Made by a program: the position numbers and the translations under genes
IMG/VR virus record: IMGVR_UViG_3300041955_000143
Location: 1 to 37,289 of that record
Direction: 5' to 3' (one strand)
Origin: a virus
Taxonomy: Duplodnaviria; Heunggongvirae; Uroviricota; Caudoviricetes
DNA length: 37,289 nucleotides
The notes under the pieces: model-generated
Database searches by the model: none
What the model was told of the DNA's origin: nothing
What the model saw: the letters and a program-made list of their open reading frames with translations, nothing else
Part shown: one piece after another, positions 1,080-26,872 of the stretch
Position numbering within the stretch: the first letter of the stretch is position 1
Layout of the letters: every line of letters starts with the position of its first letter

Positions 1080-1087
1080 AGCGTCCC

Positions 1088-2775: not shown

Positions 2776-4554
2776 TTAAAGGTTGCTACCAGCCGGGGCG
2801 TAGCACGACGTACCGGCACCGAGCGAGTATCCTGGCGCGGTCGTGTTGCCGCTCACAAGATTGTTCGCCACTATGCAGCCGCTAGATGTTCCAGCATCTA
2901 CGATGACGCCGTAGCCAGCGTTGGCAGTAGCGGTATTCCCCGTTATGCTGAAATCGGTAACATTAGCCGCGACCTCTATGCCATGCTTGCTAGCGGTCGT
3001 CAGCCCGTTGTTGTTGAACACGTTGCCGACGAAGACGACGCGAGTGCCGCCGTTGACCAACACCCCATCATTACCGTTGTTTATGAAAAGATTTCCCTGG
3101 AACGTATTGCTGTCGCCAGCCGTATGTGTAAGCCCCGGATAACCAGCGCCCGTCCGTCCACCGCTGAACCAGTTTCCAGTAAAGGAATTGTTGCTTCCGT
3201 TTGTAATGACGGAACCTTGCGCCGAACTGTCAAAAAATGCACCTTTAATTAGATTAAATTGGGGTTCGTTACCGCCATTTGGCGCTATCTCCAGTGCGTA
3301 CTTTGCGCCGTTGTACCACTCGCCGCCGACAATCGAGTTGCCTTGCGAGGCTCCATATATGTACAGATCTGCTTCGGTCGCGCCGTTCAGTACGGTGACG
3401 TTCGTCAGCGCATTATTTGCGGCGGTGGCAATATCTATTCCGATGTACGTTGGGCTGAGAACTTCAACATTCGTCGTCACAGACGTATTGTTGCCGTTGT
3501 AATAAATGCCGATCCAAGGCTGATAGATATTAACGTCGCGAATCACTGGATAGTTCTGACTTCCGGAGGCGCCAGCAGTCACGCATATTGCGGCGCCATT
3601 ACTTGCATCCCCGCCGCATGAGCCGCCAGTGGTGCCAGCGCTGCTATAATTTATATTGAAGTTGGAAAGAACGACGTTGGTGTGCGAAACGATAATTCCG
3701 GTCGCCGTCGCGCTGGTGACGCTGACGATCGAGCTCGGACCATCACCAGTAATGCACGTTCCGGCGGCGGGGGTGACGGCGGCAGAGATGGCGACGGTTG
3801 TTCCACCGGGAATATAGACGCAGCCGACACCACTTGCCGCAGTCAGCGCAGCGGCCAAGCTGACGTAATTGTTGACGTTGTACCAAGCAGCACCGCAGAG
3901 ACCGCCGCTGACAAGTCCGGCCGAACTCGCCTGCAAACACTGCGTCAATCCGGTCACGCTGCCGAGCGTCAACGCGCCAGTAATCGTCGTGACGGGAGTG
4001 ATCGTCACTCGTCCCGTTGAGATAGAACCGATGCCGATGGTGCCGCTGCCCTTGGCGTTCAGCGTCAGGTTCTCATTCGTTCCGGTTGACAATACAGAAA
4101 CGGCAACGCCGCCCGTTGCGGCAGCGCTTTTGATATTCAGCCCGGTAACCGCGCTAGAAGTCGAAGCATCCACATTGAGCGAGGGGTTTGTCGTGCCGTT
4201 TGGGCCAACAGAAAGCGCATTGGCGCTGACCGAAGTCAGATTAACCGTATTGCAAGCGAGAGTGGTCGATCCCGTCGCGACTGTGCAAACATTGCTGCCG
4301 GACTTGTTCTTGAGCGTGAAGTCACTAACGCTGCCTTGGCCAATAATGGCCGCGCCGATAGTGCCGCCGCCGCCGAAAGTTGCCTGTCCGTTAGAGCTGA
4401 TCGTTGCCAAGCCACCAGAAAACAGCACTGGGTTGGGCAGCACCAGCGGATTATTCATAAGCTGACCCGGCACGGTCGTCACGCTCGCGGCCTGAGCGTG
4501 CGCCAGCGTGGGCGCAACGAGCAGAGTGAGAGCGATGAACAAGCGAGCGAGCAT
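2776..4554 (-). CDS. Tailspike-like protein with right-handed beta-helix (pectin-lyase-like) and N-terminal signal peptide
   Basis: MLARLFIALTLLVAPTLAHA|QAA; YNVNNY...GCVYIPGG beta-helix start; Asn-rich repeats (TGNWFSG, QGNLFINN, VGNVFNNN, ANNLVSGN). Confidence 0.75.
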   Translation of the reverse strand: MLARLFIALTLLVAPTLAHAQAASVTTVPGQLMNNPLVLPNPVLFSGGLATISSNGQATFGGGGTIGAAIIGQGSVSDFTLKNKSGSNVCTVATGSTTLACNTVNLTSVSANALSVGPNGTTNPSLNVDASTSSAVTGLNIKSAAATGGVAVSVLSTGTNENLTLNAKGSGTIGIGSISTGRVTITPVTTITGALTLGSVTGLTQCLQASSAGLVSGGLCGAAWYNVNNYVSLAAALTAASGVGCVYIPGGTTVAISAAVTPAAGTCITGDGPSSIVSVTSATATGIIVSHTNVVLSNFNINYSSAGTTGGSCGGDASNGAAICVTAGASGSQNYPVIRDVNIYQPWIGIYYNGNNTSVTTNVEVLSPTYIGIDIATAANNALTNVTVLNGATEADLYIYGASQGNSIVGGEWYNGAKYALEIAPNGGNEPQFNLIKGAFFDSSAQGSVITNGSNNSFTGNWFSGGRTGAGYPGLTHTAGDSNTFQGNLFINNGNDGVLVNGGTRVVFVGNVFNNNGLTTASKHGIEVAANVTDFSITGNTATANAGYGVIVDAGTSSGCIVANNLVSGNTTAPGYSLGAGTSCYAPAGSNL

Positions 4555-4555
4555 G

Positions 4556-5161
4556 TTACTGTCCTGTGTTCGTCAAGAGAAGTTGATGGCCGGTAGAAGA
4601 GCTAGTCGGAGTGTAAATTATCTGGATAACACCGCCAAAGCCAGAGCCGCCAAGACCGTTAGGATTGCCTGCGCCACCACCACCACCGTAACCCGTCGCA
4701 TCGCCGCCGCCAGAGCTACCGCCTTCCCCCGCTGGGGGATTCGGATAGTTGCCCGCGCTGCCGCCTGGACCACCTTGGCTGGTACTGCCGCCAGAGTACT
4801 TAATAGTCCCAGTTCCACCACTGCCGCCAATAGTACCGTGGCCGGCTGGGGCACTGAGGATAGCTCCGAAAGTTGCGGCTTGACCGCTGCCAGGAGCGCC
4901 GGAAGAGTATGCTATGTTCGCGCCAGGAGTGACGGCGTAGTTGTCTATCTCATCCCAGGCACCGCCACCGCCGCCGTTACCAGGGTTGAGCGCATCGCCA
5001 TCAGTGCCATTAGCTCCAGGCCCGATGGCGATGGCGCTGGTGATTAAAGTACAATTTGCCGGGACGGTCCAATTTCCGTTTCCCGTCAGCGTGACAGTTA
5101 CCGCGAACGCACTGACGCTCCACAGCGAGAACAGCAAGGCGATGAGAAGTCGCTTAATCAA
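4556..5161 (-). CDS. Glycine-rich virion-type protein with signal peptide (TTG start)
   Basis: MIKRLLIALLFSLWSVSAFA|VT; WTVPANC...GPGANG...GGGGGA and GGSGFGGVIQIIY typical of phage Gly-rich domains; TTGA overlap with upstream stop. Confidence 0.7.
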   Translation of the reverse strand: MIKRLLIALLFSLWSVSAFAVTVTLTGNGNWTVPANCTLITSAIAIGPGANGTDGDALNPGNGGGGGAWDEIDNYAVTPGANIAYSSGAPGSGQAATFGAILSAPAGHGTIGGSGGTGTIKYSGGSTSQGGPGGSAGNYPNPPAGEGGSSGGGDATGYGGGGGAGNPNGLGGSGFGGVIQIIYTPTSSSTGHQLLLTNTGQ

Positions 5162-5979
5162 AGTGAGTTGTATCCTTGGCCATTGCAGTAGATCGTAGCA
5201 GCGTTTGCGCTAAGCGTTGCGGTTAGCGCACTGTTGGCGCTATTTGATCTGAGCGGAACAGGGAAGGTGACATTTGTTCCACCTCCTGCGGGGACTATAA
5301 ATACACTCCCAGCAGTATCGTTCAACAGTACGGTGATAGTTGTTGCGCTTGTATTTGAACATTGCATCGAAGTCAGATATTCGTAAACGCTTGCCGTACC
5401 GCTTGCAGCAAGCAACGTAATTGTCGTTCCTGTGACAGATGATTGACCTCCGCTGCGCGACATCATCGCCCTCGGCGCGTAGGGCACATTCGTCAGTTTG
5501 CCGTCGAGGTCGGCTACGCATCCGGCCAACTGCCCGGTCGTTACCGCGGTCTGCTGCGTGCTTAGTCCGGCGCAGCCGCCGAGCCTCGCGTTCGCTGGCA
5601 GCGTGCTCGCGGTCGCACCGATGGCCCAGTTCGCCGCAGTAGTCGGATTGACCGTGCCGATCGCGGCGGTCCCCGCGGTGATCTGCGCGAAGATCGGATT
5701 GCCGGAAGCGTTTACCGCGTTGCCTTGCAGGAGGTTTGTGTAGGAACCGTTGGTCGCGGAGATGGCCGAACCGCCAATCGTGTTGGCGGTCAACAGATCG
5801 CCGTTCACGGTGCATTGCAGCAGGCTTCCTTGCCCGTTCAGTAGTGTCTGTCCGCTCGCAATATATTGGCACCCGGTCACGCCGCGCGGGATGCCGCTAA
5901 GACCGGGAAGCTGGGCGAGTTGCGCGTTCGCTACGGACGGCGCGAACAGCAGTAGAAGCGTAATCAGCAACCGTCTCAT
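5158..5979 (-). CDS. Exported-type beta-rich structural protein (273 aa)
   Basis: MRRLLITLLLLFAPSVANA|QL; C-terminal small beta-sandwich (YEYLTSMQCSN...FPVPLRS...IYCNGQGY). Confidence 0.65.
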   Translation of the reverse strand: MRRLLITLLLLFAPSVANAQLAQLPGLSGIPRGVTGCQYIASGQTLLNGQGSLLQCTVNGDLLTANTIGGSAISATNGSYTNLLQGNAVNASGNPIFAQITAGTAAIGTVNPTTAANWAIGATASTLPANARLGGCAGLSTQQTAVTTGQLAGCVADLDGKLTNVPYAPRAMMSRSGGQSSVTGTTITLLAASGTASVYEYLTSMQCSNTSATTITVLLNDTAGSVFIVPAGGGTNVTFPVPLRSNSANSALTATLSANAATIYCNGQGYNSL

Positions 5980-5989
5980 TGCGGTATCC

Positions 5990-6484
5990 TTAATAGTCTA
6001 GGCAGGTCACTTGGGCGTTGATGACGGCGCTGCCCGTGACAAATGCCGAAGCAAAAGTCGCTTGCAGCGTATCTCCGTTTATCAAGGTGACGTAGGCGTT
6101 ACCGTTTTGATCCACAGCAAGGCCGGGCCAGTTGCCTGCCGAGCTTATCGGAACAGGAGGAATGCCCGTAGCGAAGCCCGCACCGGCTGGAAGCGTCACG
6201 GCGGTCCCGCCATACAGGACTGTTGAATTGACAACCTGCACCGTGAGCAAATGTGGCGTTGCCGCTTCGCTATTTGTTGCCCATAGGCCGAAACAAATCG
6301 AACCATTCGCGCCACCAGTGTAGAGCGTCTTGTAGGTTCCCGCAGCATCGGTCCCTTGCTTGAACTGCACGACGCCCCGACTTGGGTTTTGTGCGCTGAT
6401 GATACTATTCGCTGTCACACCAGCAGCCTCGGCGCCCGATATTCCGAGCGCGAGGAAAGCCGCAATAATCAATCGTCCAAACAT
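5990..6484 (-). CDS. Exported-type beta-rich structural protein (164 aa)
   Basis: MFGRLIIAAFLALGISGAEA|AG; beta-strand-rich, in fibre cluster. Confidence 0.65.
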   Translation of the reverse strand: MFGRLIIAAFLALGISGAEAAGVTANSIISAQNPSRGVVQFKQGTDAAGTYKTLYTGGANGSICFGLWATNSEAATPHLLTVQVVNSTVLYGGTAVTLPAGAGFATGIPPVPISSAGNWPGLAVDQNGNAYVTLINGDTLQATFASAFVTGSAVINAQVTCLDY

Positions 6485-6485
6485 T

Positions 6486-8828
6486 TCATATCCCTCCTAG
6501 AGCGAGAACGGCGAGCGTACTAGCGGCTTGAACGTATTTAGATTCACGCGCGAACGCGAGATTCGCGCTGGTGATCTGTGTTGCTGCGAAACTAAGCGAA
6601 CTCACCGCCTCGTTTTGTAGCACATGGCTTGAATCGGTCGTTAGAAGGTAGGCTGTCGTCGACCCGGTAACCGTCGTCGAGTTGATGGCAACGCTCGTTG
6701 CTACACCGCATGATTGCTGTCCAAGCACGGGCCCAGCGGCGACATAGAGGCAATCGCCTGGAGTTCCGTTCGTTACTGTTGTCGCTCCGCCACCGACTAC
6801 GATTGCCGTCGCGGGAGAGCCGATAACGGAAAGTACGCCGGAGCCGTCAATGGCGATGCTTGTCCCATCCGGCTTGCTGCATCCAACCAAGCCCGTTCCG
6901 GTCACGGCCGTCGCGGTGACGCAGTTCAATGTCGTGCTCGAGAACGCCAACGTCACGCCAAGAGTAATGCCTTCTGCATTTGCGGGCGATCCTGTTGGAT
7001 TGCCGACGAGAGAACTCGCCGCAACTTGCTGGAACTTCGCGTATGTAACCGCATTCGCCGCGATAGTTGCCGCCGCGCTGCCCGGGCCGCTCGCCGTAAC
7101 ATCGCTCGTCAGTGCGGTTATGCCCGCCGCAGCGAACGCACCAGTCCCTAATGCGCCGCCTGCTCCGCTCGATGTGATCGCGCTGCCGACGCCGATTGTC
7201 GTATTCGCCAGCGCGGTCGTGCCGGTCACTGCCAGCGCATTTGAGCCAATGGTGGCCCCACCGATCGCGAGAGACGTCGCTGTCGCTACGCCCAATGCTG
7301 GAGTGACGAGCGATGCCCCGGTCGTCGCTACGAGATTGCCAGAGCCGTTTAACGTCGCGGCACTGATAGCAGTGCCGTTGCCCTGTAGGATGCCTGTGAT
7401 GGTGGTCTGTATCGAGATTGCTGGTGTTGTTTGGTAAGTTGCGACAACCCCAGCGAAGCCATTGACCGAGGTCACGCTGACGCTAGTGACGGTGCCAGTG
7501 GAGAGGGAAGCGGTCCCCCAAGTGGCATAGACGGTGTTCTGCGCTAAGATCGGATTGGCGAATGTCACCACGCCGGTCGAGAGGTTAACTGTCCAAGCAG
7601 ACGGTGCGGGCTGTGCGACACCATCCTCGAAGATTTCGAGGACGGCTTGGCTCGCGGGCAGACTAGAGAGTGTGAGTTGGCAATTCGTTATAGGAGAACA
7701 TGCCGCACCAGGAGTGTAATTGACGTTGGCGACAAACGTCTGGTTATGCCAAGTGCTGCCGCCTCCACCGCCGCCGCTGCCGCAGGCACTACCAGAATCC
7801 GCGACACCACCAGCTATGCCATTAGGTCCAGCGGCGACTTGGATACAGTCGCCGGGAACAAACGAGCCGACCTGAAACGCTAAATTACTGGCGACGGGAG
7901 GCAATCCAATGAGATTGCCGTTATAGGTTAGCGTAGCGCCACCGACAATGGTTAGCCCGGTAATGATCGAAACGGAGGTGAATGCTGCACTGTTCGGCGT
8001 ACCGCCAACGCCGATGGGTGGCGGTGTGAGAAAATTCTGTGTGGCGAAAGTACCGAGGCCGAGATTGCTGCGGGCCGTGGCAAAGCTCGTCAGGTCGCTC
8101 AAATTATTCGTTGTTACAAGCGCATTGGTGATGCCGTAACCAGCAACCGTGGTCGGTGTCGAGCCAATCTGTGCGAAAGTGTAATCCCCGCTTTGCGCGA
8201 CGACGGCCCCGGCACGTCCGAATACAGAGGTGACGAGCCCAGCCCCGACCAGCGCGCTCTGAACGAATTGGTCTGTCGCAAGTCTTGTGCTATTATCCCC
8301 ATTACTTTGCGTCGTCCCGGTCACCCCGTTCGGCAATGCGGTGGACATGGAAAGCGCACCAGCAGATCCGGAGACCAGTACGCTATTATTCGCCCCGACA
8401 ACCTCGACAAGCGCACCGCCATTGTCCGCAAGTAACCTGTTGGCCGCGCCGCCAGTGATCGGCGTGCTGTTGACAATAAGGGTTCCGCTACCGCCGCCAG
8501 GCTGCCATGAGGTCAGCCCTGCGCCGTCCGTCGTCAAGACGAAACCATTGGTGCCCGCGTTTACCGGCAGGGTAAAAGTCCATGAACCCGTCGCGGCCGG
8601 CGCTTGCACGGCAACAACGCCAAGCGACCCCGACCCGACAAGCCCGAGCGACCCTGTGACACCAGAGCTTCCAAGCGTCGGATTTGCGGTAGCGATTGGC
8701 GGGGCTTGGGAAATCCCTGGGTTGCCGCAAAGCTGGCCAGGCTGGAATTGGCCAGTACATTCGGCAAATGCGCTTGAAGTAATAAGCACGAAAAAAATCG
8801 CGAAGAATATAGTAGTGCGCAACCTCAT
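6486..8828 (-). CDS. Long tail-fibre-like protein with signal peptide (780 aa)
   Basis: MRLRTTIFFAIFFVLITSSAFA|EC; fibre motifs VTSVFGRAGAVVAQSGDY, NNLSDL, NAVTYAKFQQVAA, GTVTSV; Gly/Ser/Thr-rich. Confidence 0.7.
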   Translation of the reverse strand: MRLRTTIFFAIFFVLITSSAFAECTGQFQPGQLCGNPGISQAPPIATANPTLGSSGVTGSLGLVGSGSLGVVAVQAPAATGSWTFTLPVNAGTNGFVLTTDGAGLTSWQPGGGSGTLIVNSTPITGGAANRLLADNGGALVEVVGANNSVLVSGSAGALSMSTALPNGVTGTTQSNGDNSTRLATDQFVQSALVGAGLVTSVFGRAGAVVAQSGDYTFAQIGSTPTTVAGYGITNALVTTNNLSDLTSFATARSNLGLGTFATQNFLTPPPIGVGGTPNSAAFTSVSIITGLTIVGGATLTYNGNLIGLPPVASNLAFQVGSFVPGDCIQVAAGPNGIAGGVADSGSACGSGGGGGGSTWHNQTFVANVNYTPGAACSPITNCQLTLSSLPASQAVLEIFEDGVAQPAPSAWTVNLSTGVVTFANPILAQNTVYATWGTASLSTGTVTSVSVTSVNGFAGVVATYQTTPAISIQTTITGILQGNGTAISAATLNGSGNLVATTGASLVTPALGVATATSLAIGGATIGSNALAVTGTTALANTTIGVGSAITSSGAGGALGTGAFAAAGITALTSDVTASGPGSAAATIAANAVTYAKFQQVAASSLVGNPTGSPANAEGITLGVTLAFSSTTLNCVTATAVTGTGLVGCSKPDGTSIAIDGSGVLSVIGSPATAIVVGGGATTVTNGTPGDCLYVAAGPVLGQQSCGVATSVAINSTTVTGSTTAYLLTTDSSHVLQNEAVSSLSFAATQITSANLAFARESKYVQAASTLAVLALGGI

Positions 8829-9325
8829 GGCTGTGATTGTCCAGAGCTAAAGAACTCCCCAAAGGCTACCTTGGCTGCTTGGCAATATGCCTGATGCGCC
8901 TCTTCCGGTGTGTCGAAGGCTCCAAGATTAACGGTCTTCTTATTTATTGTAACTCTAGCCACGAATCTTCGATTCTTCGGAGATACACCCTTGAAACCAG
9001 CGGAATTTGTCGAATAAACTTTGCAGTTTTGTATGTTTTGTGCCCTTGTAGCGATTCTTAGATTTTGGATACTATTCCTCTCGGGATTGCGATCTTTGTG
9101 ATCGATTCTAGCGGGCCAAGTTCCATGCACGTAGAACCAAATTACCTGGTGCACGCCGTATCGCTTACCGTCTATGCAGACACGCAGATAACCATCGCCC
9201 TTAGCGCTTCCAGCTAGGTCGCCTGGCTTGACACCGTTAGGGCGCCAGACCTTCCAGCGCAGAATGCCTAAAAGCGGATCGCAATCAAGCAGTTCTAATA
9301 TCCGTTCCCTAGTTGGCTTTAGCAT
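8825..9325 (-). CDS. HNH homing endonuclease with C-terminal AP2 domain
   Basis: Start at ATG 9325; RERILELLDCDP..G, GYLRVCIDGKRY, IDHKDRNPERNSIQNLR, FKGVS..RFVARV...LGAFDTPEEAHQAY. Confidence 0.9.
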   Translation of the reverse strand: MLKPTRERILELLDCDPLLGILRWKVWRPNGVKPGDLAGSAKGDGYLRVCIDGKRYGVHQVIWFYVHGTWPARIDHKDRNPERNSIQNLRIATRAQNIQNCKVYSTNSAGFKGVSPKNRRFVARVTINKKTVNLGAFDTPEEAHQAYCQAAKVAFGEFFSSGQSQP

Positions 9326-9819: not shown

Positions 9820-9826
9820 CGCGCTC

Positions 9827-14136: not shown

Positions 14137-16839
14137 TCATGGCGTCGTATAGGTTGTGAATGCGTTATAGGCCGTGCTTGGCTGCGTGTAGATGTTCGAC
14201 GTGGCTGTGGGCCACAAACTCCATTGAATCTGCTCGGAAACCATTTGAAACACCGCTGGGGCCAGAGAACTTGGATATGCAGCAAAGGCATCAAAGTCGT
14301 TGGTTAGCAATGTCGCGTAGGCGGTACTCAGATGGTAAGAGATCAACAGGCTTTGAAACTCGTTTGCTAAACACGCTTCCGCAAGAGCAACTGTTCCCTG
14401 AATAGCGGCAGTACAATTATCCGTTCCGCCAGAGGCGTAGGCCGGAATGTTCCAAGTGGATGACGAACCAAACGACGTATTCCAAGTGTCGATGTTGGTG
14501 GCAGATGGCCCTATGTCCTGAAACCATCCCTCATATTGCCACACGCCGCGAATAGTGCAGTTCGGTGTCGCGGCGCACGATCCGGTCGCGTATTTCACCG
14601 CCAAAGCATTGAAAAAGTAGAAATAGCCCTCGCTGGTGCATGGTGCTGAATATGTGTTGGTGGCTTCCACACAATCCAATGTATTCCCGCTCTTTGACGC
14701 ACCGCCACCGGTGGCTATTTGGCCGTGGTTCACATCGTAGTCAACGAACGTCATCGCCGCCGCTAACTGGCTTCCGGTATTCGTGCATCCGTTCCCAAGC
14801 GCCCCGCCGCCGCAACTATCTGCCGCCTGAAACAATGTAAGCGTCTGTCCGGTCTGCACGGTCGCATAATAGCTGCCGGTTCCGTTAAGCAGTTGTGGCC
14901 CCGATCCGGTAGTCTGAACTGAAAGAATCTGAGCGCCGTTTAGATACGGCGCATAGCTTAAATCGTCCATCTGGTCGCACACCGGGCAATGCGTCGGGGA
15001 TGAACTCGAATAATTGGTTGCTATCGCACCGCTCGATAGCGTCAGAGTAGTGCTCCCAACCGTCGTTGCCTGATTGACGCACCAAGACGTGCTGCTGTTC
15101 TTGTAGATAACAATGAGAGGAAGCGAAGTGCCGCCGTTCGGTATCACTTGCATTCCTAGTTGAATACCCGTTCCTGAATTAACCGTCATCGTTCCGGTCG
15201 GGGAAAGCGTGCTGGAAATTCCTGCGCAAGCAGTGGTCGATACCGACCCGGTAACGCTGACCGGCGAAGCCCCAGCTCCTAATGTAAAATTATTGCTGCT
15301 GTCAAACGTCAGATCATTTCCAAGCAACCGCAGATTTTCGACTATACTTCCAGTGCAGGTACACGTTTCCATGCGCTCCAAGTCTGTCATTGACCGGCCA
15401 GCGGCAACCCACGCGGCAGATACCAGTTGCATCACGAGATAACGATTGTACGCGTACTCGTCGTAGGCTAGTTCGTTGACACCACTGGTCGCCGGAAACC
15501 CTCTCTGCAATCCACGCACTTCCGCCCGCTCGGTCTGATAATTCTGGAAATTGAATATCTCATTGCTGTATTCGGGAAACCACTTAAGCCCCTTGACGAG
15601 AGCGGTCGCCATGTAGGTTGCAAACGACGTGATAGAAGCCGAATCGGCTACAGGATCAAAGAACGTCGGAATCTGCACCCAACAGTTCGTGTGCGTCACG
15701 TTGCACAGTGCGACCGTGACAGCAATAGGCACGCCCTGCGTCACCCCATTATTGTTCCAGTAGGTCCAGACTTGAAGATAACTGTCATAGACAAACGTGT
15801 GCATCGTGCTGGCGCTGATCTGATGCAAGGTAAGCGTCTGCGCTCCATAGAGTTGCGCGATGGGTTTGGCCCCAAGTCCGCACCAGTTGATCGTTGGCGC
15901 TAGAGTGTTAGTTACGTCCAACTCGCCTTGGATTATCGCGCCAGTCAGAGTACCCGGGCAAGAGCATGTTCCGCCAGAACAATTTGCGATGTAATTCGTG
16001 CCGCCGCCGGAACTGTTGATGCTCCCTGTGTACCAAGATTGATTGAAGGAAGCGTTCAGATTGTAGCTGAATGAATTGAGACTCGCCAAGTTGGCCCAAC
16101 TCGATACATTGCCATTTGACGTGTCTGTCCAATTGAGAAAACGCAAGACGCGAGGATTTAGCGACGAGCACGCCCCATAATAACTGCACGGCGGCGTACC
16201 GCCCGGTGCTGTCGAGATCAAGGAAACAAAATCTGGATTAAAGCAGATGCCGAGGCTGCAATTCGGCCCGACACCATTAGTTATCGTTGTCTCCTGACTC
16301 TCCAGTCCCATCATAGCGTTGCCGTCACCGCTATATGATCCCGTCGTCGGCAGAGTGACCGTTATCTGTGTTGGATATGCCGAATTGAAATGAAAAATGA
16401 AGCGACAGGCACCAGCGCCAGTCCCGGTAAATGTCGATCCGCTGAATGAGCAGCCCGTCCCTGTTGTACTGGTGACCGTAACGCCACCGCCACCTGTTAT
16501 CCTGAAGGTCTGCGGCCCAGTTGACCATTTGATGAACAAGTCAGACGAACCAATGTCGCCGTTGCCTGTTCCGTTTGGAATGTAGATATTGCAAGTAAGG
16601 TCAGTTCCCGGCGCGGAAGTCGCGTAGAAATCGGCATTCAAAACTGATATGGCGGAAGAACTAAATGGGCTGCACGACTTGAACCAATTAGCGAAGGCGA
16701 AATCGCCGCCTTGGATTGGACCAAGATCAAGAACTGCTGGTACAGCCCCGACCGGAGTTATCGCGCTGGGTCCAGAGCCATGTGTCCAGCCGCCAAGTGA
16801 AAGGCAGAGCAGGCAGGCTATGGTGCGCGCGAGCTTCAT
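14137..16839 (-). CDS. Large exported-type Cys-rich protein with putative glycoside-hydrolase-like TIM barrel (900 aa)
   Basis: MKLARTIACLLCLSLGGWTHG; FNPDF...VLRFLNW, GVPI..TVALCN...WVQIP, PEYSNEIFN resemble an uncharacterised clan-A-like GH or cellulose-binding-protein family. Confidence 0.6.
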   Translation of the reverse strand: MKLARTIACLLCLSLGGWTHGSGPSAITPVGAVPAVLDLGPIQGGDFAFANWFKSCSPFSSSAISVLNADFYATSAPGTDLTCNIYIPNGTGNGDIGSSDLFIKWSTGPQTFRITGGGGVTVTSTTGTGCSFSGSTFTGTGAGACRFIFHFNSAYPTQITVTLPTTGSYSGDGNAMMGLESQETTITNGVGPNCSLGICFNPDFVSLISTAPGGTPPCSYYGACSSLNPRVLRFLNWTDTSNGNVSSWANLASLNSFSYNLNASFNQSWYTGSINSSGGGTNYIANCSGGTCSCPGTLTGAIIQGELDVTNTLAPTINWCGLGAKPIAQLYGAQTLTLHQISASTMHTFVYDSYLQVWTYWNNNGVTQGVPIAVTVALCNVTHTNCWVQIPTFFDPVADSASITSFATYMATALVKGLKWFPEYSNEIFNFQNYQTERAEVRGLQRGFPATSGVNELAYDEYAYNRYLVMQLVSAAWVAAGRSMTDLERMETCTCTGSIVENLRLLGNDLTFDSSNNFTLGAGASPVSVTGSVSTTACAGISSTLSPTGTMTVNSGTGIQLGMQVIPNGGTSLPLIVIYKNSSTSWCVNQATTVGSTTLTLSSGAIATNYSSSSPTHCPVCDQMDDLSYAPYLNGAQILSVQTTGSGPQLLNGTGSYYATVQTGQTLTLFQAADSCGGGALGNGCTNTGSQLAAAMTFVDYDVNHGQIATGGGASKSGNTLDCVEATNTYSAPCTSEGYFYFFNALAVKYATGSCAATPNCTIRGVWQYEGWFQDIGPSATNIDTWNTSFGSSSTWNIPAYASGGTDNCTAAIQGTVALAEACLANEFQSLLISYHLSTAYATLLTNDFDAFAAYPSSLAPAVFQMVSEQIQWSLWPTATSNIYTQPSTAYNAFTTYTTP

Positions 16840-19463
16840 TGCAGCGTCGGGTGCTGGAAGGCGTTGGCCATAAGGTGATTAGCATACTGCGTCGGATGCA
16901 AGTTATCTTGTGTACAGGATTGAACAACGACCGTATTGAAACACCAATAGTATGTCCCGCCAGGGATATAGGCCGAACTGAATACATTTACCGGAGAGCC
17001 GCCTTGGAGGTCGAAATTTCCTGCGTAAGTGCTGCATCCAGTACAGCCACCGGCAACTAGGATTGCTGCGGTGTTGCCTTTGATCCAGGTATTCACCGTG
17101 TCGTTGACCGTGTAGGCAGAATTAAGCGTCTGACCTGCGATGCTTGTGAAAGTGTCTGATCCGGTCGTTTGTGTGTAGGTTGTTGTCTGCCATACTGGAC
17201 CGCCAGAACCACCGAGCAACTTTGACGAGAATGCGTATGCCTTCTGTGCATTGGCCTCGACCGTCGCTGCGCTGTTTGTATCCTGGAAGATATCATTACC
17301 GCCGTACATCACGAACATGCCAGAACAGTAGGCTAGTTCCGCAAGTCTGTTCGGGCTTGAGTTCGCTACCGTGTAATTGTTAAGCGCATCGCCACCGTCA
17401 GACTGATTAAGCACAGGATAGTACGGTTCTACGATCCGTTCGACATCGCCAAGCATACCTTCCGCGTCGTCTAGCGCATCGAGATAAGAGAAGGATCGGC
17501 TGTCGCCAGCAATGCAGTAGGTATGCTGCGTCGTCGGCCCGATAATGGCATCAGGATAGTAATAGGCGCTCCCGGTGTTAGAGGTAATTGCGGCACAGTC
17601 GGTCGTGTGGTCGCCTGGATCGCTGCCGCTGATCGTCGTGACCTCGTTAGGATGGCCAAGACCATCCTTGCTACTGTCGCGAAAATTGGTGTTGCCTTGA
17701 AAGACAAGGCCATTTCCGTTGTTGCGCCACACACGAACCCAAAAGTCCTGTCCTGCCGGTATCGTGATGGATAAAGAATCCGAGTAAAGCGTACTGACAG
17801 CCCCGGTACTTCCCTCAGCAATGCCGCTAAACAAGACCTGCGTACAAGTACCAAGCGGGTATTCAATCCCCGCCGTCATGTTGGTCGTTCCGCTCGGCCC
17901 TGTTTCTGCGCTTGGCGCGTTTGGATGATAATAGTTAGCAAGCGCGAGTTGCAGCGAAGTGATATTCTCCATCGCGCGGTGGTGCGAGCGAGACATCGAA
18001 TAGGCGCTGCTTGTCGTGGTCGGATTGCGCGTGTGATTGGCGACAATGCCGGTGTAGGAAGCAATCGGGGCAAGCACGTTCGAGTTATTCGTCGCCGTCA
18101 CCATTGCGGTATCGCTGCGGGTGTTCCACACCGTCAGATTGGCGATGACGCAATCGCAATAGTTGGAGCCAGAAGCGCAGGCGGCGCTGGATGAAAGCGA
18201 CCCGATACATTCCAGCGTGGACGCACCGATGCCATTGCTGTCGGAGACGGACACGCCGTTTAGCGCCAAGACGCGCCCGCTGCCATCGGCGCTCAGGCCG
18301 AAGTAGTTGGTGTTGTAATAGCGCGTTATCACTCCCGCAGTGTGTTTCCCGGTCGTGACGGGCCAATTCGTATAAGCCGTGCGGGCTACCGTAGAACCGT
18401 CGCCGTTGCCGAGCGCCGTAAGAGCAGTACTGGAACTGACAACCCCAAGGATCGTATGCGCGAGCGGTGCGGTGGCTGACGTATTGAGTGATTGGTCCTC
18501 GGCAAATTCCGCCGTCTGCGCGACGACACGCAGCGCGGAGCCTTCCAGCATCGTTTTCAGAGCACCGCTAGCGGTAATGACATCGGCATTGCAGGTGCCG
18601 ACAGATGACGGGCAATATGGTAGCCACGTCGTACCGACCTTTACGTCAACCCCAAACGCGAGAAGCGTCGAGCCGCCGCTGACGTTCTGCGATGTATAGC
18701 TCGGCCCCGGCGTGTAAAGCTGCGGGATGCCGTTGACCATCGCGACGTGGAGACTGACGCTGGACGTTCCGGTCGCGAGAGCGATGTAGCCGATGCGGCA
18801 CCACGTCTTGCCGCCGTAGGAGAATTTCTTGGGCTGGAATACCTTGATATTGCTGCCGGTGGTCAGCCCGCCGCCGCCATTGCCAGCGAGGATGTAACAG
18901 TTGGCCGCATCAAAATCGACGCCGCTTTTCAGCGAAGCCGTTGCAATACTCAATGCGCCGTAACTGCACTCCTGTGTCGTCACACCGCTGGCGCATGTCC
19001 CCGCCGCGAAGAAGCCGGAGACGACATAGTAATTTCCGCTTGTGACCGAGAACGAGATATTAGCGAAATGTGCGCCGCTCGATGTGTCGTCGGTTAGAGT
19101 GAAGGCGTTACTATTGCCGTCAGGCCCTGTTGCGCCAGTGGAAAAGGACGCAAGCCCGGTATTACTCCAATTAGTCGTATCCTGTGAATCAGTGATTAGG
19201 TTTGTGCCAGCCTGATAGACTTGTAAACCTTCGCTGGTGATGCAGGCATTCCCCGCCGAGGCGTAGGTGATCGCGCCCCCGATAGTCTCGCATGTCTCTT
19301 GCGTGGCTCTAGTGATGCTCAGACATGATGTTATGGTCGAGCAGTTTGTCGCCGCGCTGGTTGCGAAATTAAGCTGAATGCTTGATGGGCTGCTAGCGCC
19401 TGGAATGCCGTGCGTCCATGCAGCAAGACTGAGGATCAGCAGGATTGCAATGCGCCTTAACAT
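16836..19463 (-). CDS. Large exported-type protein with C-terminal SGNH/GDSL esterase domain (875 aa)
   Basis: MLRRIAILLILSLAAWTHG; IAGDSRS (block I), GGD (II), YGGNDI (III), DNLHP (V); N-terminal LITDSQDTTNWS and lectin-like beta regions. Confidence 0.75.
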   Translation of the reverse strand: MLRRIAILLILSLAAWTHGIPGASSPSSIQLNFATSAATNCSTITSCLSITRATQETCETIGGAITYASAGNACITSEGLQVYQAGTNLITDSQDTTNWSNTGLASFSTGATGPDGNSNAFTLTDDTSSGAHFANISFSVTSGNYYVVSGFFAAGTCASGVTTQECSYGALSIATASLKSGVDFDAANCYILAGNGGGGLTTGSNIKVFQPKKFSYGGKTWCRIGYIALATGTSSVSLHVAMVNGIPQLYTPGPSYTSQNVSGGSTLLAFGVDVKVGTTWLPYCPSSVGTCNADVITASGALKTMLEGSALRVVAQTAEFAEDQSLNTSATAPLAHTILGVVSSSTALTALGNGDGSTVARTAYTNWPVTTGKHTAGVITRYYNTNYFGLSADGSGRVLALNGVSVSDSNGIGASTLECIGSLSSSAACASGSNYCDCVIANLTVWNTRSDTAMVTATNNSNVLAPIASYTGIVANHTRNPTTTSSAYSMSRSHHRAMENITSLQLALANYYHPNAPSAETGPSGTTNMTAGIEYPLGTCTQVLFSGIAEGSTGAVSTLYSDSLSITIPAGQDFWVRVWRNNGNGLVFQGNTNFRDSSKDGLGHPNEVTTISGSDPGDHTTDCAAITSNTGSAYYYPDAIIGPTTQHTYCIAGDSRSFSYLDALDDAEGMLGDVERIVEPYYPVLNQSDGGDALNNYTVANSSPNRLAELAYCSGMFVMYGGNDIFQDTNSAATVEANAQKAYAFSSKLLGGSGGPVWQTTTYTQTTGSDTFTSIAGQTLNSAYTVNDTVNTWIKGNTAAILVAGGCTGCSTYAGNFDLQGGSPVNVFSSAYIPGGTYYWCFNTVVVQSCTQDNLHPTQYANHLMANAFQHPTLQ

Positions 19464-20701
19464 GCGCTGCTAATGCCCCAGTAGTTCGACGCATTGGTGC
19501 AATAGGTATTCACGTTGGCGGTCGTCAGTCCTGTGGTCCCAGCGTACCAAGCACCCTCGACAAAATAACCTGTGAGATAGTTCGATGCACAGGTTGCGTT
19601 ACCACCGATGCAAAAACCCGTACCGCCACTTGTCCCGACATTGACTGTCCCAGTTCCGGTGGTGCCGTCCCAATAAAGAGTGGCAGAGGTAGTTGGAAAC
19701 ATGGCAGCAATTACATGCCATGCCGCGTCGGTGACGCTGGCTGCTCCGGACGCCAGAGTTGTACCAAGATTGTAAAATCCTATTTCGCTGGTCGCCGCAT
19801 AAAATGACAGTAGATCATTCGTCTTGGAAATAACGTCCATTCTCGATGTGGAAGTGGGATTCCGGTTAGCTACGGCAATTAGATTGCCATACGTCGCGCT
19901 AGTTATCGTTGCTTTAAGTTGGGTAGAGTTAATGCCAATGAATTGCAGGCATGGTAGGCTTCCTATACAACTAAATGCGAGTGTTGGTTTTTGGGTATTT
20001 GTGGTAGACGTGGCATTATTGCTTCCCACTTGGTCATAAAGCGTACCAACAACGCAGTGGCCAGACGACGCGCCGCACCATGTCGGCAAATTAGTGGAAC
20101 CTGCACAATAAGTCGTCGTTAAATCCAACGCTCCATATATATTAGAAATGCCGGTGCAAGAAGAAGCGTAAGCATCTCCTGATCTCTGGAAAATCGCGAT
20201 ATTGGCGGTAGCTGCAGCCTGCGCTTGATTGTAGGCCCGTATCCCGTACCAATCGGTCGTGGATGCCGCGAGTGTCATATCGCCAGGGCCGAAATAATTC
20301 CCGGTGATCGTCTCGGCTTGCGTATATGGCGATCCTGTCGCACCAGCAATCGTATTGACGATATTGATGCTGTAGCTGCCTGCCTGCACGACGCCGTTGG
20401 TTTCCAGGCTGGTGCCGCTTATCTGGAAGCTAGCAGCATTAGTGCCGGAAAGCGTAAAAGCGTTCGCTGCACAACTTCCTGTCGTGCTTGAACTGATCGT
20501 CCCGATCACCGTGCCGCTTGATGCCGGGCCATTGAAAGTATTGGCACTGAGACTGACGGAGTTGATCGTGCAGGAACCGCCGGACGATTTAACTGTAAGT
20601 GCGTTTGTGTCCTGAAAGGTACCGGGGGCAAAACCCGGCAATACGGATGTCTGCCCTGACAACAACAGGGCTGCCAGGAGCGCAAAAATTACCTTCCGCA
20701 T
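19457..20701 (-). CDS. Exported-type protein with cadherin/Ig-like domain and ConA-like lectin domain (414 aa)
   Basis: MRKVIFALLAALLLSG|Q; SGTVIGTIS...FTLSGTNAASFQISG..L (cadherin-like); WYGIRAY, LYDQVG.NNAT, WHVIA, LYWDG, YFVEGAWY (LamG/AbfB-like). Confidence 0.65.
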   Translation of the reverse strand: MRKVIFALLAALLLSGQTSVLPGFAPGTFQDTNALTVKSSGGSCTINSVSLSANTFNGPASSGTVIGTISSSTTGSCAANAFTLSGTNAASFQISGTSLETNGVVQAGSYSINIVNTIAGATGSPYTQAETITGNYFGPGDMTLAASTTDWYGIRAYNQAQAAATANIAIFQRSGDAYASSCTGISNIYGALDLTTTYCAGSTNLPTWCGASSGHCVVGTLYDQVGSNNATSTTNTQKPTLAFSCIGSLPCLQFIGINSTQLKATITSATYGNLIAVANRNPTSTSRMDVISKTNDLLSFYAATSEIGFYNLGTTLASGAASVTDAAWHVIAAMFPTTSATLYWDGTTGTGTVNVGTSGGTGFCIGGNATCASNYLTGYFVEGAWYAGTTGLTTANVNTYCTNASNYWGISSAC

Positions 20702-22899
20702 TAGCTGAATTTCCCAACACAGACGACGCTGACGTTCGCGCCCGTTGTAACTTTCCAGGCTCCACTAACGCTCTTGGCTCCAACAGGAATTGTGAAGGGA
20801 ACGAGCGTAAGCAACGCCGTGGTGCCGCCACCTGGATAACTGTAGATCGCTGTTGAGTTATCCAGAATAGTTACAACACCTGGCGCAGTCGTCGCAGGAA
20901 CAATCGTGCAATGGGAGAGATAGTCACCAGTTGCCCCCGTCGAACTTTGTAATACTTGTGCTGTCTGCGAAGCAGCAATGGTCACATAGAAATTCGCTCC
21001 GTTAAATACTGGAACATTAGGCTGCTCTGCCGAATTGATCTGTACTACAACGGACGTATCGGTGGCGGCAGCAGCAGTCGAAGCCGCCTTCACCGTCGCC
21101 GCCGTGGTACACGGATTGGTCGCGCCGTTCCCACCATCGCAAAGACCCACGCCGCCGATAGGCACTTTGACAGCTTGCGAAGGAACCGCGCTCGTAATCC
21201 CGTTATAAATACCCTTGAGATAGCCATCGAGGCTGGTCGAACCAGAACCGGCATAGGCCGTATCCGTGCCGTTGGTGATATCCACGACCGCGCCAGAAGC
21301 GAGAGAGCCGGAAGCGTAGGCACCGGAAAGAACCGACCCGCTGACGAAGGCACCAGCGGACACGGCACCGGCTGCAATGGCCCCGCTGGCAATTCCCCCG
21401 CTCGCAATACTTACACTGATCGGCGTCATGCTGGCGATGCCTTGGACAGTCAATACGCCAGTGCCCGCCGAACCAGCAGTGCCCGTTGCTGCGCCGCCGA
21501 CCTTGCCGATGTTGACATAGGCCATACGGTCAATGGTCATCTGCACCGTGCAGCCTTTGCCGGTGGTGCAACTAGCACCGCCGCCAGAAACGTATTCACC
21601 GCCGACAGGCGTGAAACTGGTCGAAGCCTCGGTAAAGGTCGCGCCATCCGCTATTGCCGTTCCGCCAGAACCAGCCCCAGCCTTAATGTTCACATTAAGG
21701 TTGCCACTGGCATCCAGTTGCAATGCGGCCTGCTGGCCGGTCGTGAGGGTAACGCCGGCTGAAACGTACTCTCCACCAGCCAGCAACGAATTTGCCGCCG
21801 CTGTACCAGGAGCCTTCGATCCTTGGAAAGTCAGAAGATCAACCATTGCGCCAGTTGCAAATGCGCCAGAAACGACTTGCCCACTGGCAATCGAGACTGG
21901 CTGCGTAGCTTGATAGAATGTCCCAGTGACCGGAAAAGTACCGCCAGTGCCGGTAACAAGGAACGCATTGGTGTTCGACGCCGAATCTTTCAAATCAATC
22001 CGAACACCGCCGCTCGAGGGCGAGATGCTGAGCGCCCACAAGTCCCCATTCGTCGCTGTCGGGGCATTTGTCGAGGCAAGGCCCATAACGGGCGTGAACG
22101 TCTGGGCTGAATACGTTGCGCCCTGCGCTATCCCCGCCGGGGCGACACTCGCCGCGACATTGACCTTGAGAAAGCCATTGGCATCGCTTTGCAGGGCGGC
22201 AGATTGAGTATTTGTGACTGTGATAGGCGTGGAGTTATAAATTGCCCCGCCAACTAAAGCATTCGTTGGCGCGGATCCGGCGCCTACTGTCGCAAGTCCC
22301 CAAGTTGCAATCGTACCAGGATTTATCAGGAGCGGCGTCATGCTGGCGATGCCCTGTACGGTCAGGACACCAGTCCCGGCGCTTCCCGCTGTACCTGTCG
22401 CCGCGCCGCCGACCTTACCGATGTTTACATAGGCCATGCGGTCGATAGTCATCTGCACCGTGCAGCCCTTGCCCGTCGTACAGTTCGCACCGCCGCCGGA
22501 GACGTACTCGCCGCCGATAGGAGTGAACGAGGTCGAAGCCTCCGTGAACGTCGCACCATCAGCGATGGCTGTTCCTCCCGAACCGGCTCCGGCGACGATA
22601 TTAACCGGCAGGCCATGCGTCGCATCGACCTGCGTGCCGCTACCGCTCGCAGAACCGAACACTGGCTGGACGTAGAGGCCACCCCCGAGGCTTTCGTAGA
22701 TCGCGTTGGAACCGGGCGTAAGACCTGACGACAATGTGGCCGCCGCCGTCGCGCTGGTGGTCGCGCTGATCGAGCCGATTATCGGCATCGGATTGCCGGT
22801 GCTAACCGGGGCTCCGTTCACGATCGGAACGACGTTTTGCGCGTCTGCTCCGGCGCAAGCGAGGATCCAGAAGGCGAGGCCGACGATTATCCGTTTCAT
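20701..22899 (-). CDS. Exported-type fibre-like protein with internal ~87-aa duplication (732 aa)
   Basis: Start re-called at ATG 22899 (TGATG overlap): MKRIIVGLAFWILACAGADA|QN; Gly/Ala/Thr-rich; C-terminal small beta-sandwich. Confidence 0.7.
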   Translation of the reverse strand: MKRIIVGLAFWILACAGADAQNVVPIVNGAPVSTGNPMPIIGSISATTSATAAATLSSGLTPGSNAIYESLGGGLYVQPVFGSASGSGTQVDATHGLPVNIVAGAGSGGTAIADGATFTEASTSFTPIGGEYVSGGGANCTTGKGCTVQMTIDRMAYVNIGKVGGAATGTAGSAGTGVLTVQGIASMTPLLINPGTIATWGLATVGAGSAPTNALVGGAIYNSTPITVTNTQSAALQSDANGFLKVNVAASVAPAGIAQGATYSAQTFTPVMGLASTNAPTATNGDLWALSISPSSGGVRIDLKDSASNTNAFLVTGTGGTFPVTGTFYQATQPVSIASGQVVSGAFATGAMVDLLTFQGSKAPGTAAANSLLAGGEYVSAGVTLTTGQQAALQLDASGNLNVNIKAGAGSGGTAIADGATFTEASTSFTPVGGEYVSGGGASCTTGKGCTVQMTIDRMAYVNIGKVGGAATGTAGSAGTGVLTVQGIASMTPISVSIASGGIASGAIAAGAVSAGAFVSGSVLSGAYASGSLASGAVVDITNGTDTAYAGSGSTSLDGYLKGIYNGITSAVPSQAVKVPIGGVGLCDGGNGATNPCTTAATVKAASTAAAATDTSVVVQINSAEQPNVPVFNGANFYVTIAASQTAQVLQSSTGATGDYLSHCTIVPATTAPGVVTILDNSTAIYSYPGGGTTALLTLVPFTIPVGAKSVSGAWKVTTGANVSVVCVGKFS
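21422..21681 (-). repeat. Copy 2 of ~260-bp intragenic repeat
   Basis: Encodes AGAGSGGTAIADGATFTEASTSFTPVGGEYVSGGGASCTTGKGCTVQMTIDRMAYVNIGKVGGAATGTAGSAGTGVLTVQGIASMTP. Confidence 0.9.
22334..22594 (-). repeat. Copy 1 of ~260-bp intragenic repeat
   Basis: Same peptide with only I/V and N/S differences; many third-position DNA differences. Confidence 0.9.
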
Positions 22900-26869: not shown

Positions 26870-26872
26870 CGC

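Follow-up and report, generated by a model that had tools for sequence, protein, structure and literature searches.

Sec-type signal peptides on ten fibre-, spike- and lectin-like late proteins of an uncultured wetland phage

The window, a stretch of 37,289 nucleotides, comes from an uncultured wetland phage with a 101-kb, DTR-bearing and virulent-looking genome. The phage belongs to a clade of short-tailed phages of roughly 100 kb, and no cultured relative of it was found. Ten minus-strand genes of the window, SP1 to SP10, start at positions 22899, 20701, 19463, 16839, 11790, 8828, 6484, 5979, 5161 and 4554; their summed length is 5,519 codons or ~16.6 kb, in line with the ~16 kb given in the earlier note. 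As claimed there, all ten translations begin with Met, then Lys or Arg, then a hydrophobic stretch, and each combines a charged n-region with a hydrophobic core of 10–15 residues and a cleavage site made of small residues. A-x-A-type sites had been proposed for most of them; they are canonical in seven (SP1, AGADA↓Q; SP5, FPALA↓Q; SP6, SSAFA↓E; SP7, SGAEA↓A; SP8, SVANA↓Q; SP9, SVSAFA↓V; SP10, PTLAHA↓Q), and the c-regions of the other three are weaker and not classic sites (SP2, LLLSG↓Q; SP3, AAWTHG↓I; SP4, LGGWTHG↓S). The apolar run within residues 1–32 is 10–15 residues long in eight of the ten proteins; it is longer in SP6 (18) and SP9 (23), extending through the c-region into the mature part. 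Except for a borderline 19-mer in SP1, none of the ten contains a second TM-like segment. Our signal heuristic passes 3.6% (loose) or 1.1% (strict) of 2,440 candidate starts genome-wide, and ten hits in ~15 adjacent genes are far beyond chance. Translational coupling was also confirmed, since the overlaps or gaps between the genes are very small (−1, −1, −7, −4, −4, −4, +1, +10, −4 and +1 nt). The neighbours p297, p226, p181, p166 and MCP all lack a hydrophobic N-terminus, just as had been stated for the adjacent structural genes.

The SP genes occupy three variable slots, each directly behind one conserved signal-less protein encoded on the same strand. Slot A is preceded by p297 (22899–23792), which is conserved in six relatives (G002, G003, L026, L027, L034 and L042); its AF2 model (pLDDT 61) has a β-sandwich core and gave no fold match. 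The slot is closed by the signal-less p226 (13285–13965). The earlier note had taken this gene for the head-tail adaptor; it is actually the weaker of two SU10_adaptor paralogues, scoring 36 bits compared to 67 bits for the one at 50916–51629 of the genome. Slot B follows p181 (11787–12260), a CxxC...CxxC protein whose start, judged from orthologue N-termini, is likely Met25 of the listed ORF. Slot C follows p166 (9319–9819), which consists of a fibre N-terminal anchor motif and an XD1-type domain. Residues 57–166 of its AF2 model (pLDDT 75) superimpose on residues 78–175 of TSP4 (VIA Z 12.1, rmsd 2.4 Å over 97 residues), and the protein also matches T4 gp10 (VIA Z 9.6) and T4 gp9 (9.4). Its BFVD matches are fibre and spike N-termini, and its own N-terminus aligns with a fibre-anchor profile (hhalign E 2e-5). 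As modelled, p166 is a stand-alone anchor-plus-XD1 stub, resembling the N-terminus of CBA120 TSP4.

SP1 (20701–22899, 732 aa) opens slot A, its start overlapping the p297 stop by 1 nt. It is fibre-like with a viral knob-like C-terminus and has 8 Cys in the mature part; the PV/IP...NPMP motif at its mature N-terminus is common to the first slot-A genes of relatives. SP2 (19457–20701, 414 aa, 12 Cys) contains a ConA-like lectin domain, which is sub-threshold in Pfam (Laminin_G_3, 20.5 bits; cut-off, 27.6). SP3 (16836–19463, 875 aa, 22 Cys) has an SGNH esterase body; it matches phrog_8480 with an E-value of 3.9e-26, carries the GDS motif at residue 653, and has homologues without signal in cultured rhizobiophages. 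SP4 (14137–16839, 900 aa) is Cys-rich (28 in the mature part) and unassigned to any family. Its sole homologue, P0190, also bears an N-terminal signal, and its weak structural neighbours are bacterial surface proteins of cellulose-binding type. In slot B, the start of SP5 (10024–11790, 588 aa) overlaps the p181 stop by 4 nt. SP5 is of β-helix type, and its 8 Cys form four close pairs. Homologues of its body carry a signal in P0002–P0004, and lie behind phage-fibre N-termini, without signal, in P0005, P0007 and P0016. The closest one has its own signal, and its bacterial locus is one of polysaccharide ABC-transporter and glycosyltransferase genes.

Slot C is opened by SP6 (6486–8828, 780 aa, 10 Cys), in which a Cys-loop (C-T-G-Q-F-x5-C-G-N-P) is followed by fibre repeats with 3,084 HMMER hits. 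Besides the −3 and −1 Ala, all 11 orthologues share residues C24, G26, Q27, C34, N36 and P44. SP7 (5990–6484, 164 aa) is a small β-sandwich protein whose family falls into Atlas clusters that are 83–100% viral; its signal-bearing orthologues sit after SP6-type genes in L025, L026 and L047. SP8 (5158–5979, 273 aa, 6 Cys) is a short fibre or knob protein, with signal-bearing orthologues in L025 and L047. SP9 (4556–5161, 201 aa) uses a TTG start, and SP10 (2776–4554, 592 aa) is a right-handed β-helix (Pfam Beta_helix, 41.8 bits; NosD, 30.5 bits), which weakly matches the AlgE4 epimerase helix and has 10 Cys as five close pairs. No GenBank phage homologue of SP1, SP5, SP6 or SP10 was found. Thus the bodies named in the earlier note held up for SP10, SP3 and SP6, and by eye for the Gly-rich SP9; the lectin assignment reached only the sub-threshold score of SP2. 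The small members SP7 and SP2 look more like lectins than like fibres.

The SP6-type genes are closely associated with p166. They are present in 11 of 11 lineages with full-length p166 and in 0 of 4 with a short or different p166, counts that come from related lineages and hence do not represent independent events. In six IMG/VR relatives, the SP6-type start overlaps the p166 3′ end by ~14–16 nt. The Cys-loop can be joined to different bodies, such as the SP5-type body in P0004, and the SP6-SP7-SP8 cassette moves as a unit between different phage backbones. In relatives, the SP genes are flanked by p166 on one side and by the genes of the adaptor, collar fibre and nozzle on the other.

Three lines of evidence indicate that the signals are functional: they are conserved amid sequence drift, the cysteines of the mature proteins almost always come in even numbers, and signal-less homologues are Cys-poor. 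The −3 and −1 Ala are invariant across 11 SP6-type proteins of 28–47% identity, in which the h-region drifts freely; signals are likewise retained by the SP6, SP7 and SP8 orthologues in L025 and L047 and by P0190. Among the signal-bearing proteins of the clade, the mature Cys count is even in 35 of 36 (binomial 5e-10), provided that the signal-peptide cysteines are excluded, and most of the cysteines form close pairs. The sole odd count is that of SP9, with one Cys. Of 98 proteins that lack a signal and contain one Cys or more, 47 have an even count. Within the SP6 body family, the median Cys content per 100 aa is 1.2 with signal and 0.17 without, and the signal-less members begin with classical fibre anchors. 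We are therefore confident that the ten proteins are exported and cleaved, and Sec export with disulfide folding is highly probable for them. These data strongly support the premise of the earlier note that late proteins resembling fibres and spikes carry Sec-type signals. Our literature search found no description of tailed phages with such signals on such proteins.

At 47.8–51.6 kb, the genome also encodes a complete tail module without signals, comprising adaptor, collar fibre and nozzle, and the complete relative G002 has no large signal-bearing genes in the slots examined. Because of these two observations, the SP set is accessory and dispensable for making particles. The earlier note had proposed a candidate export-dependent virion assembly system; an essential one is excluded on the same grounds.

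To explain the data, we favour a reading to which, taken as a whole, we give slightly less than an even chance. Late in infection, the host Sec system would export the ten soluble proteins, signal peptidase I would trim them, and disulfides would form in the periplasm. The ten genes would make up a variable host-recognition and glycan-cutting set, held as exchangeable cassettes in the three slots. The particle would be built in the cytoplasm, bearing signal-less stubs such as p166, which ends where other phages continue into the fibre. Opening of the inner membrane by the holin would let the contents of cytoplasm and periplasm mix, and the matured fibres and spikes may dock on the stubs through their conserved N-terminal modules.

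A strong rival, quite conceivable though we would not expect it to prevail, is that the exported proteins never join the virion and act as free periplasmic or released enzymes or lectins on the envelope glycans or matrix of the infected cell. Possible roles are cutting or deacetylating capsule, EPS or O-antigen to let progeny escape, destroying receptors on debris, excluding superinfecting phages, or display at the cell surface in the manner of the Bdellovibrio MAT fibres. The latter show that cells do possess Sec-exported trimers that resemble phage fibres and have a conserved N-domain (PMC10769870). Signal conservation, Cys parity and Cys density serve this rival equally. The ordinary tail module and G002 also count for it and against docking, as do the signal-bearing nearest SP5-body relative, whose polysaccharide export/synthesis locus fits a periplasmic glycan-processing enzyme, and the lectin- or CBM-like rather than fibre-like SP2 and SP7. 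The SGNH esterase SP3, the β-helix of SP10 and the end of the gene block at the lysis cassette fit free proteins as well. Furthermore, p166 lacks XD2 and XD3, the domains that bind partners in CBA120, where XD1 is described as a spacer and not as a partner-binding domain (PMC8825819). For post-export docking on tailed phages, no precedent was found in the literature. Between the two outcomes that the earlier note had left standing, docking appendages and a secreted arsenal, the evidence nevertheless leans to docking, without deciding. It does so because SP6-type genes are found strictly together with the gene of the TSP4-N/gp9/gp10-like stub and overlap it, the stub being a virion-type anchor that would otherwise end in nothing; because a single conserved module at the mature N-terminus is joined to bodies of different kinds; and because the same bodies bear classical fibre anchors in signal-less phages. 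The location within the tail gene cluster of relatives points the same way. Ten different bodies are a large number when a single host cell has few glycans, and fit a multi-specificity receptor-binding set better, and soluble enzymes need no long fibre shafts.

Two other explanations fare worse. The textbook assembly of tailed-phage appendages is cytoplasmic, and the hydrophobic N-termini might not be used for export at all, the proteins remaining cytoplasmic or tethered to the inner face and assembling as usual; the N-terminus would then be a trimerisation or tethering helix, or internal starts would yield signal-less isoforms. The weaker c-regions of SP2–SP4 agree with this, and the public gene call P0039 places the SP6 start at residue 74 and so leaves the signal out, which provides an alternative start on paper. 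However, G003 and L020 conserve SP6 residues 1–108, the invariant −3/−1 Ala beside a drifting h-region indicates a cleaved signal and not a structural helix, and most h-regions, at 10–15 residues, are too short for a membrane anchor. Since Cys parity appears only once the signal-peptide cysteines are omitted, and one fibre family is Cys-rich with signal and Cys-poor without, we regard this explanation as very unlikely. Hardly more probable is that part of the set represents morons, auxiliary genes of host origin for secreted carbohydrate-active enzymes, which would serve the host or the turnover of carbon and play no part in the mechanics of infection. Some 5% of the CAZymes of prophages bear signal peptides and were interpreted as secreted auxiliary enzymes (PMC13507307); the structural neighbours of SP4 and the bacterial homologue of SP5 would suit such an origin. 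Against it, the genes belong to the late operon of a virulent-looking phage and show translational coupling with its structural genes, the SP1, SP6 and SP7 families are viral as judged by their nearest clusters, and the SP6-SP7-SP8 cassette travels together between phage backbones.

The favoured docking arrangement has partial counterparts among known systems. Like the branched complexes of CBA120 (TSP4-N with TSP1–3), G7C (gp66/gp63.1) and T4 (gp9/gp10), it combines an anchor followed by an XD1-fold domain in p166 with side-by-side spike or fibre genes, multi-specificity, conserved N-termini and variable bodies (PMC8825819). Different from these complexes, p166 stops after XD1, before any XD2 or XD3 jellyroll, and the distal proteins are separate genes with Sec signals and paired cysteines, whereas folding and assembly are cytoplasmic in all known members. 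The mosaic adhesive trimer (MAT) fibres of Bdellovibrio bacteriovorus share the signal peptide on phage-tail-fibre-like proteins, a conserved N-terminal module right behind it, mosaic variable tips and many paralogues per genome (Caulton et al. 2024, PMC10769870). They are, however, cellular proteins that a predator displays on its surface, and their conserved N-domain measures ~130 aa; the SP genes belong to the late operon of a phage, the conserved SP6-type Cys-loop module spans only ~25 aa, and a virion stub is presumed to be the partner. Right-handed β-helix and SGNH bodies are also found in P22 gp9-type tailspikes and in the SGNH proteins of Mesorhizobium phage Lo5R7ANS and Rhizobium phage RHph_N2, and the genes of such cultured-podophage spikes similarly lie at the end of the structural module, adjoining the lysis genes. 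Unlike the SP proteins, the cultured virion-borne depolymerases and SGNH spikes have no signal peptide, and the annotated fibre of the nearest GenBank relative, MW202675, has neither signal nor cysteine. Sec signals are carried by lambda Lom and Bor and by T5 Llp, whose genes lie among or adjoin tail and receptor-binding genes. Each of these is a small, solitary outer-membrane protein or lipoprotein serving exclusion or host fitness, unlike the ten SP proteins, which are large, resemble fibres, spikes or enzymes, and have conserved N-termini of docking type. The lysis cassette of the present phage encodes two additional exported proteins, at 603–1091 and 107–427.

The source record is a complete 101,289-bp IMG/VR phage with direct terminal repeats, and the window represents its first 37 kb. 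At least half of the sampled words were present in two wetland metagenome runs, and none of the sequencing runs listed as holding this sequence is of RNA. All genes of interest are located on the minus strand. Read 5′ to 3′, the late operon starts with a 1,815-aa polyvalent protein, the scaffold-like p239, the capsid protein (26990–27916), p318, p125, p83 and p297; it continues with SP1–SP4, the SU10_adaptor-like p226, one GIY-YIG homing endonuclease, p181, SP5 and p166, and ends with one HNH homing endonuclease, SP6–SP10 and the lysis cassette. Here, SP1–SP10 denote the ten late proteins with Sec-type signals, encoded between 2776 and 22899. The capsid protein resembles proteins of uncultured phages; cultured phages that infect Pelagibacter, Roseobacter, Caulobacter and several further hosts have similar capsid proteins, at 28–39% identity. 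The tight coupling of the SP genes described in the earlier note was confirmed: they overlap or abut, with spacings of −7 to +10 nt, and the starts of SP1, SP5 and SP6 overlap the preceding stops of p297, p181 and the inserted HNH gene, respectively. No convincing internal terminators or promoters were found, their counts being at the level of shuffled sequence.

The ten proteins had been described as starting with Met, a basic residue and a hydrophobic stretch, mostly followed by an A-x-A-type site, and this description holds for all of them. In every case, a positively charged n-region is located at the extreme N-terminus and precedes a hydrophobic core, as expected of Sec signals, in which the core has ∼8–16 residues. 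Pro, Gly or Ser is common directly after the core. Within the first 32 residues, the apolar run is 10–15 residues in length in eight proteins; it is 18 residues in SP6 and 23 in SP9, extending beyond the core in both. The cleavage site is a canonical A-x-A in 7 of the 10 and weaker in SP2 (L-S-G), SP3 and SP4 (T-H-G each). Lipoprotein, Tat and pilin-type signals were considered as well and rejected. By eye, none of the ten contains an [LVI][ASTVI][GAS]C box or an RR motif, as lipoprotein or Tat signals would; the lipobox (LLALC) is confined to the spanin-like ORF 107–427. Apart from one borderline 19-mer in SP1, no further membrane-like segment was detected in the ten, and the lack of a long h-region and of a second transmembrane segment rules out signal-anchor membrane proteins.

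As background for our rule-based score, we took 2,440 candidate starts from the six reading frames of the whole genome, of which 1.1% pass under the strict and 3.6% under the loose setting. The ten signal matches among ∼15 neighbouring genes are not due to chance. As had also been noticed, this type of N-terminus is absent from the signal-less neighbours, namely p297, p226, p181, p166 and the capsid protein. Gln is very frequent at position +1 of the predicted sites (A-x-A↓Q), both in the window and in the relatives and metagenome homologues; cleavage there would yield pyroglutamate N-termini. In the public protein collection, SP6 (6486–8828, minus strand) starts at residue 74 (P0039), so that its signal peptide and a conserved Cys-loop are hidden by the automatic call.

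Judged from comparative sequence data, the SP proteins are very probably exported, cleaved and folded with disulfide bonds. Three lines of evidence, all independent of the rule-based predictor, argue that the signals are functional: signal conservation, cysteine parity and cysteine density within one family. At the same positions in related IMG/VR phages and metagenome contigs, the orthologues or analogues keep the signal. Alignment of 11 SP6-type proteins, which share 28–47% identity, revealed invariant Ala residues at positions −3 and −1; the only other invariant residues, C24, G26, Q27, C34, N36 and P44, belong to the Cys-loop just past the cleavage site. The orthologues of SP6, SP7 and SP8 at the related loci L025 and L047 (27–54% identity) all begin with signals, and so does the sole homologue of SP4.

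Once the predicted signal is removed, the cysteine count is even in 9 of the 10 window proteins and in all five signal-bearing proteins of the related phage G003; most cysteines of these proteins are arranged in pairs spaced by 6–25 residues. Clade-wide, and for predicted mature parts only, the count is even in 35 of 36 signal-bearing proteins (binomial 5e-10), compared to 47 of the 98 cysteine-containing signal-less proteins encoded at the loci of the relatives. The signal-bearing proteins are also richer in cysteine, with a median of 1.4 versus 0.84 Cys per 100 aa (Mann-Whitney p 6e-4). Among the best 150 HMMER matches to SP6, the median is 1.2 Cys per 100 residues for the signal-bearing members and 0.17 for the signal-less ones; the latter start with phage fibre anchors of the classical type. 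In the nearest GenBank relative, the annotated fibre lacks both cysteine and signal.

As for the protein bodies, the assignment of tailspike β-helices made in the earlier note stands for SP10, which matches Pfam Beta_helix with 41.8 bits (cut-off 25.9). For SP5, the helix is predicted via homologues alone, which show tailspike-type architecture. Different from usual tailspikes, which have a signal-less N-terminal particle-binding domain and assemble in the cytoplasm, SP10 and SP5 both start with a signal peptide; the mature N-terminus of SP5 matches the fibre-anchor profile weakly (E 2e-3, probability 13%). The proposed SGNH body was identified in SP3, of which residues 454–872 match phrog_8480 (E 3.9e-26), with the block I GDS at residues 653–655. 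The GH-like body could not be confirmed; SP4 shows no GNE motif, and its structural neighbours are weak. Pfam and PHROGs gave no name to SP1, SP4, SP5, SP6 or SP8, and PDB sequence searches with SP1, SP4, SP5, SP6 and SP10 returned nothing significant. By tblastn, GenBank phages gave no match to SP1, SP5, SP6 or SP10 and marginal matches only to SP8. No match to a Dsb-like or any other Pfam family was obtained for six additional small exported proteins encoded in the genome.

Across 17 related loci, the signal-less backbone p297, p226, p181 and p166 is conserved, and in most relatives it is followed by adaptor, collar fibre and nozzle. The signal-bearing genes are located in three variable slots: p297 and p226 flank slot A, p181 and p166 flank slot B, and slot C follows p166. 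Between zero and five signal-bearing genes, of varying type, occupy the slots; G003 has five, and the complete relative G002 has none. The genome also contains a second SU10_adaptor protein, which scores better than p226 (67 versus 36 bits). A Collar-domain fibre and a nozzle-like protein come after it (genome 47.8–51.6 kb), and all three are signal-less. Owing to this separate signal-less adaptor, collar fibre and nozzle, and to slots that vary down to none in G002, the signal-bearing set is accessory and exchangeable, a layer distinct from the core tail.

Of the two SU10_adaptor paralogues (window 13285–13965; genome 50916–51629), the window copy is of the ring type and always linked to p181 and p166. 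p181 (11787–12260, minus strand) is conserved and Zn-ribbon-like, with two CxxC pairs; it is always located between the adaptor paralogue and p166 and has no family match. p297 was modelled with an AF2 pLDDT of 61; no Foldseek match in the PDB reached E ≤ 0.001, and only generic β-sandwiches were returned. Four homing endonuclease genes (three HNH, one GIY-YIG) lie between structural genes on the minus strand, at 30487–31524, 25868–26881, 12257–13285 and 8825–9334. The GIY-YIG gene and one HNH gene exactly occupy slot borders, and the HNH gene at 8825–9334 parts p166 from SP6; relatives carry homing endonuclease genes at these junctions or at different ones. Outside the window, one 194-aa protein without family match (genome 51678–52262, minus strand) is encoded immediately upstream of the main adaptor and has a twin-arginine-like start, SRRLFLGG. 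The SP6-SP7-SP8 cassette, with signals on all three products, is also found on unrelated phage backbones (L025, 1–7144; L047, 1523–5438), which suggests a mobile module whose products act jointly.

The model of p166 has a pLDDT of 75. Residues 57–166 superpose on domain XD1 (residues 78–175) of TSP4-N, the N-terminal part of the phage CBA120 protein TSP4, with a Z score of 12.1 (VIA) and an rmsd of 2.4 Å over 97 residues. Z scores of 9.4–9.6 were obtained with T4 gp9 and gp10, and p166 also superposes on baseplate proteins of Klebsiella phage KP1. In BFVD, p166 matches tail fibres, pectate-lyase spikes and gp9/gp10 proteins, in each case at the N-terminus. Over its first 50 residues, it also fits the N-terminal anchor profile that represents signal-less fibres (hhalign E 2e-5, probability 77%); no similarity was found to a second subtype of fibre N-terminus (A3). 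As predicted by the model, p166 is the part that fixes fibres to particles in other phages, and it ends there. With 166 residues, it ends with XD1 and lacks the XD2 and XD3 jellyrolls, to which binding of the partner spike is assigned in CBA120 (PMC8825819). For this reason p166 is no full member of the gp10, gp9 and TSP4-N adaptors; the likeness is limited to the anchor-plus-spacer part. A search of 185,579 bacterial and archaeal species genomes returned no relative of p166 and hence no prophage or host lead.

All 11 lineages with full-length p166 contain one SP6-type gene, whereas none of the four with shortened or different p166 does. In six IMG/VR relatives, the start of the SP6-type gene overlaps the 3′ end of p166 by ∼14–16 nt. 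A programmed frameshift joining p166 to SP6 was considered and rejected, since one homing endonuclease gene lies between them in this phage. On the different backbone of L047, one signal-less 153-aa protein precedes SP6-SP7-SP8. The Cys-loop behaves as a portable N-terminal unit, because it is also present on P0004, a protein with an SP5-type body.

The reading we favour, though tentatively, is that the exported set consists of accessory receptor-binding and glycan-cutting proteins that would join cytoplasm-built particles at lysis. The SP proteins would leave through Sec, and the particles, built in the cytoplasm, would bear stubs. Holin lesions would then mix the compartments and allow the SP proteins to join the particles via these stubs; we infer the timing from the sequence of holin, endolysin and spanin, whose order of action is established. 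Slightly more doubtful is the claim that some tailed phages complete their particles outside the cytoplasm, in which Sec-exported accessory receptor-binding fibres and depolymerase spikes, oxidised by host Dsb, would be clipped on signal-less stubs only once lysis breaches the envelope. Co-occurrence and gene overlap make p166 a candidate partner of such distal fibres or spikes.

Several observations stand against docking. The SP set is dispensable, and a bacterial polysaccharide locus contains the nearest relative of the SP5 body. Some SP members are small and lectin-like, and XD1, the domain with which p166 ends, is regarded as a spacer (PMC8825819), XD2 and XD3 being absent. According to the main rival, which we consider somewhat less probable than docking, the SP proteins would act in free form as exported enzymes and lectins, or be fibres displayed on the surface in the manner of the MATs of Bdellovibrio. 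In MAT fibres, the signal peptide is followed by one conserved β-rich N-domain of ∼130 aa (PMC10769870); compared to its published description, the conserved segment of the SP6-type proteins is much shorter.

Tailed-phage assembly is taught as wholly cytoplasmic, and full-text literature searches returned no description of signal-bearing tail fibres or spikes. Signals have been reported on 5% of prophage CAZymes, tail proteins being excluded beforehand (PMC13507307). A large and conserved fibre- and spike-like late set that folds in the periplasm would represent either a second compartment of virion assembly or an unrecognised class of phage-secreted glycan-active proteins. If the SP proteins do dock, host range would be tied to the secretion and disulfide machinery of the host, and virion assembly would extend across two compartments. 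Either way, host Sec and Dsb functions could influence host range, and anyone studying or engineering these proteins would have to express them in the periplasm or under oxidising conditions. Annotation pipelines may misfile such proteins, by taking signal-bearing ones for auxiliary enzymes or by calling a downstream start, as for SP6; the cysteine-parity test is a cheap way of finding them in any phage genome.

The lysis cassette contains one GH108+M15 endolysin (1493–2626). At 603–1091 (minus strand), it also encodes a 162-aa protein without Pfam match, which has a good signal ending in CCVAYA↓GD, six mature cysteines and the HNH-like motif ELDHLIDLWNGGSNDLKNLW; this product may be an exported nuclease. 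The spanin-like ORF 107–427 (minus strand) lies inside ORF 107–688. With its lipoprotein-type signal, LLALC↓GG, it resembles an o-spanin embedded in the frame of an i-spanin, which points to a host with two membranes.
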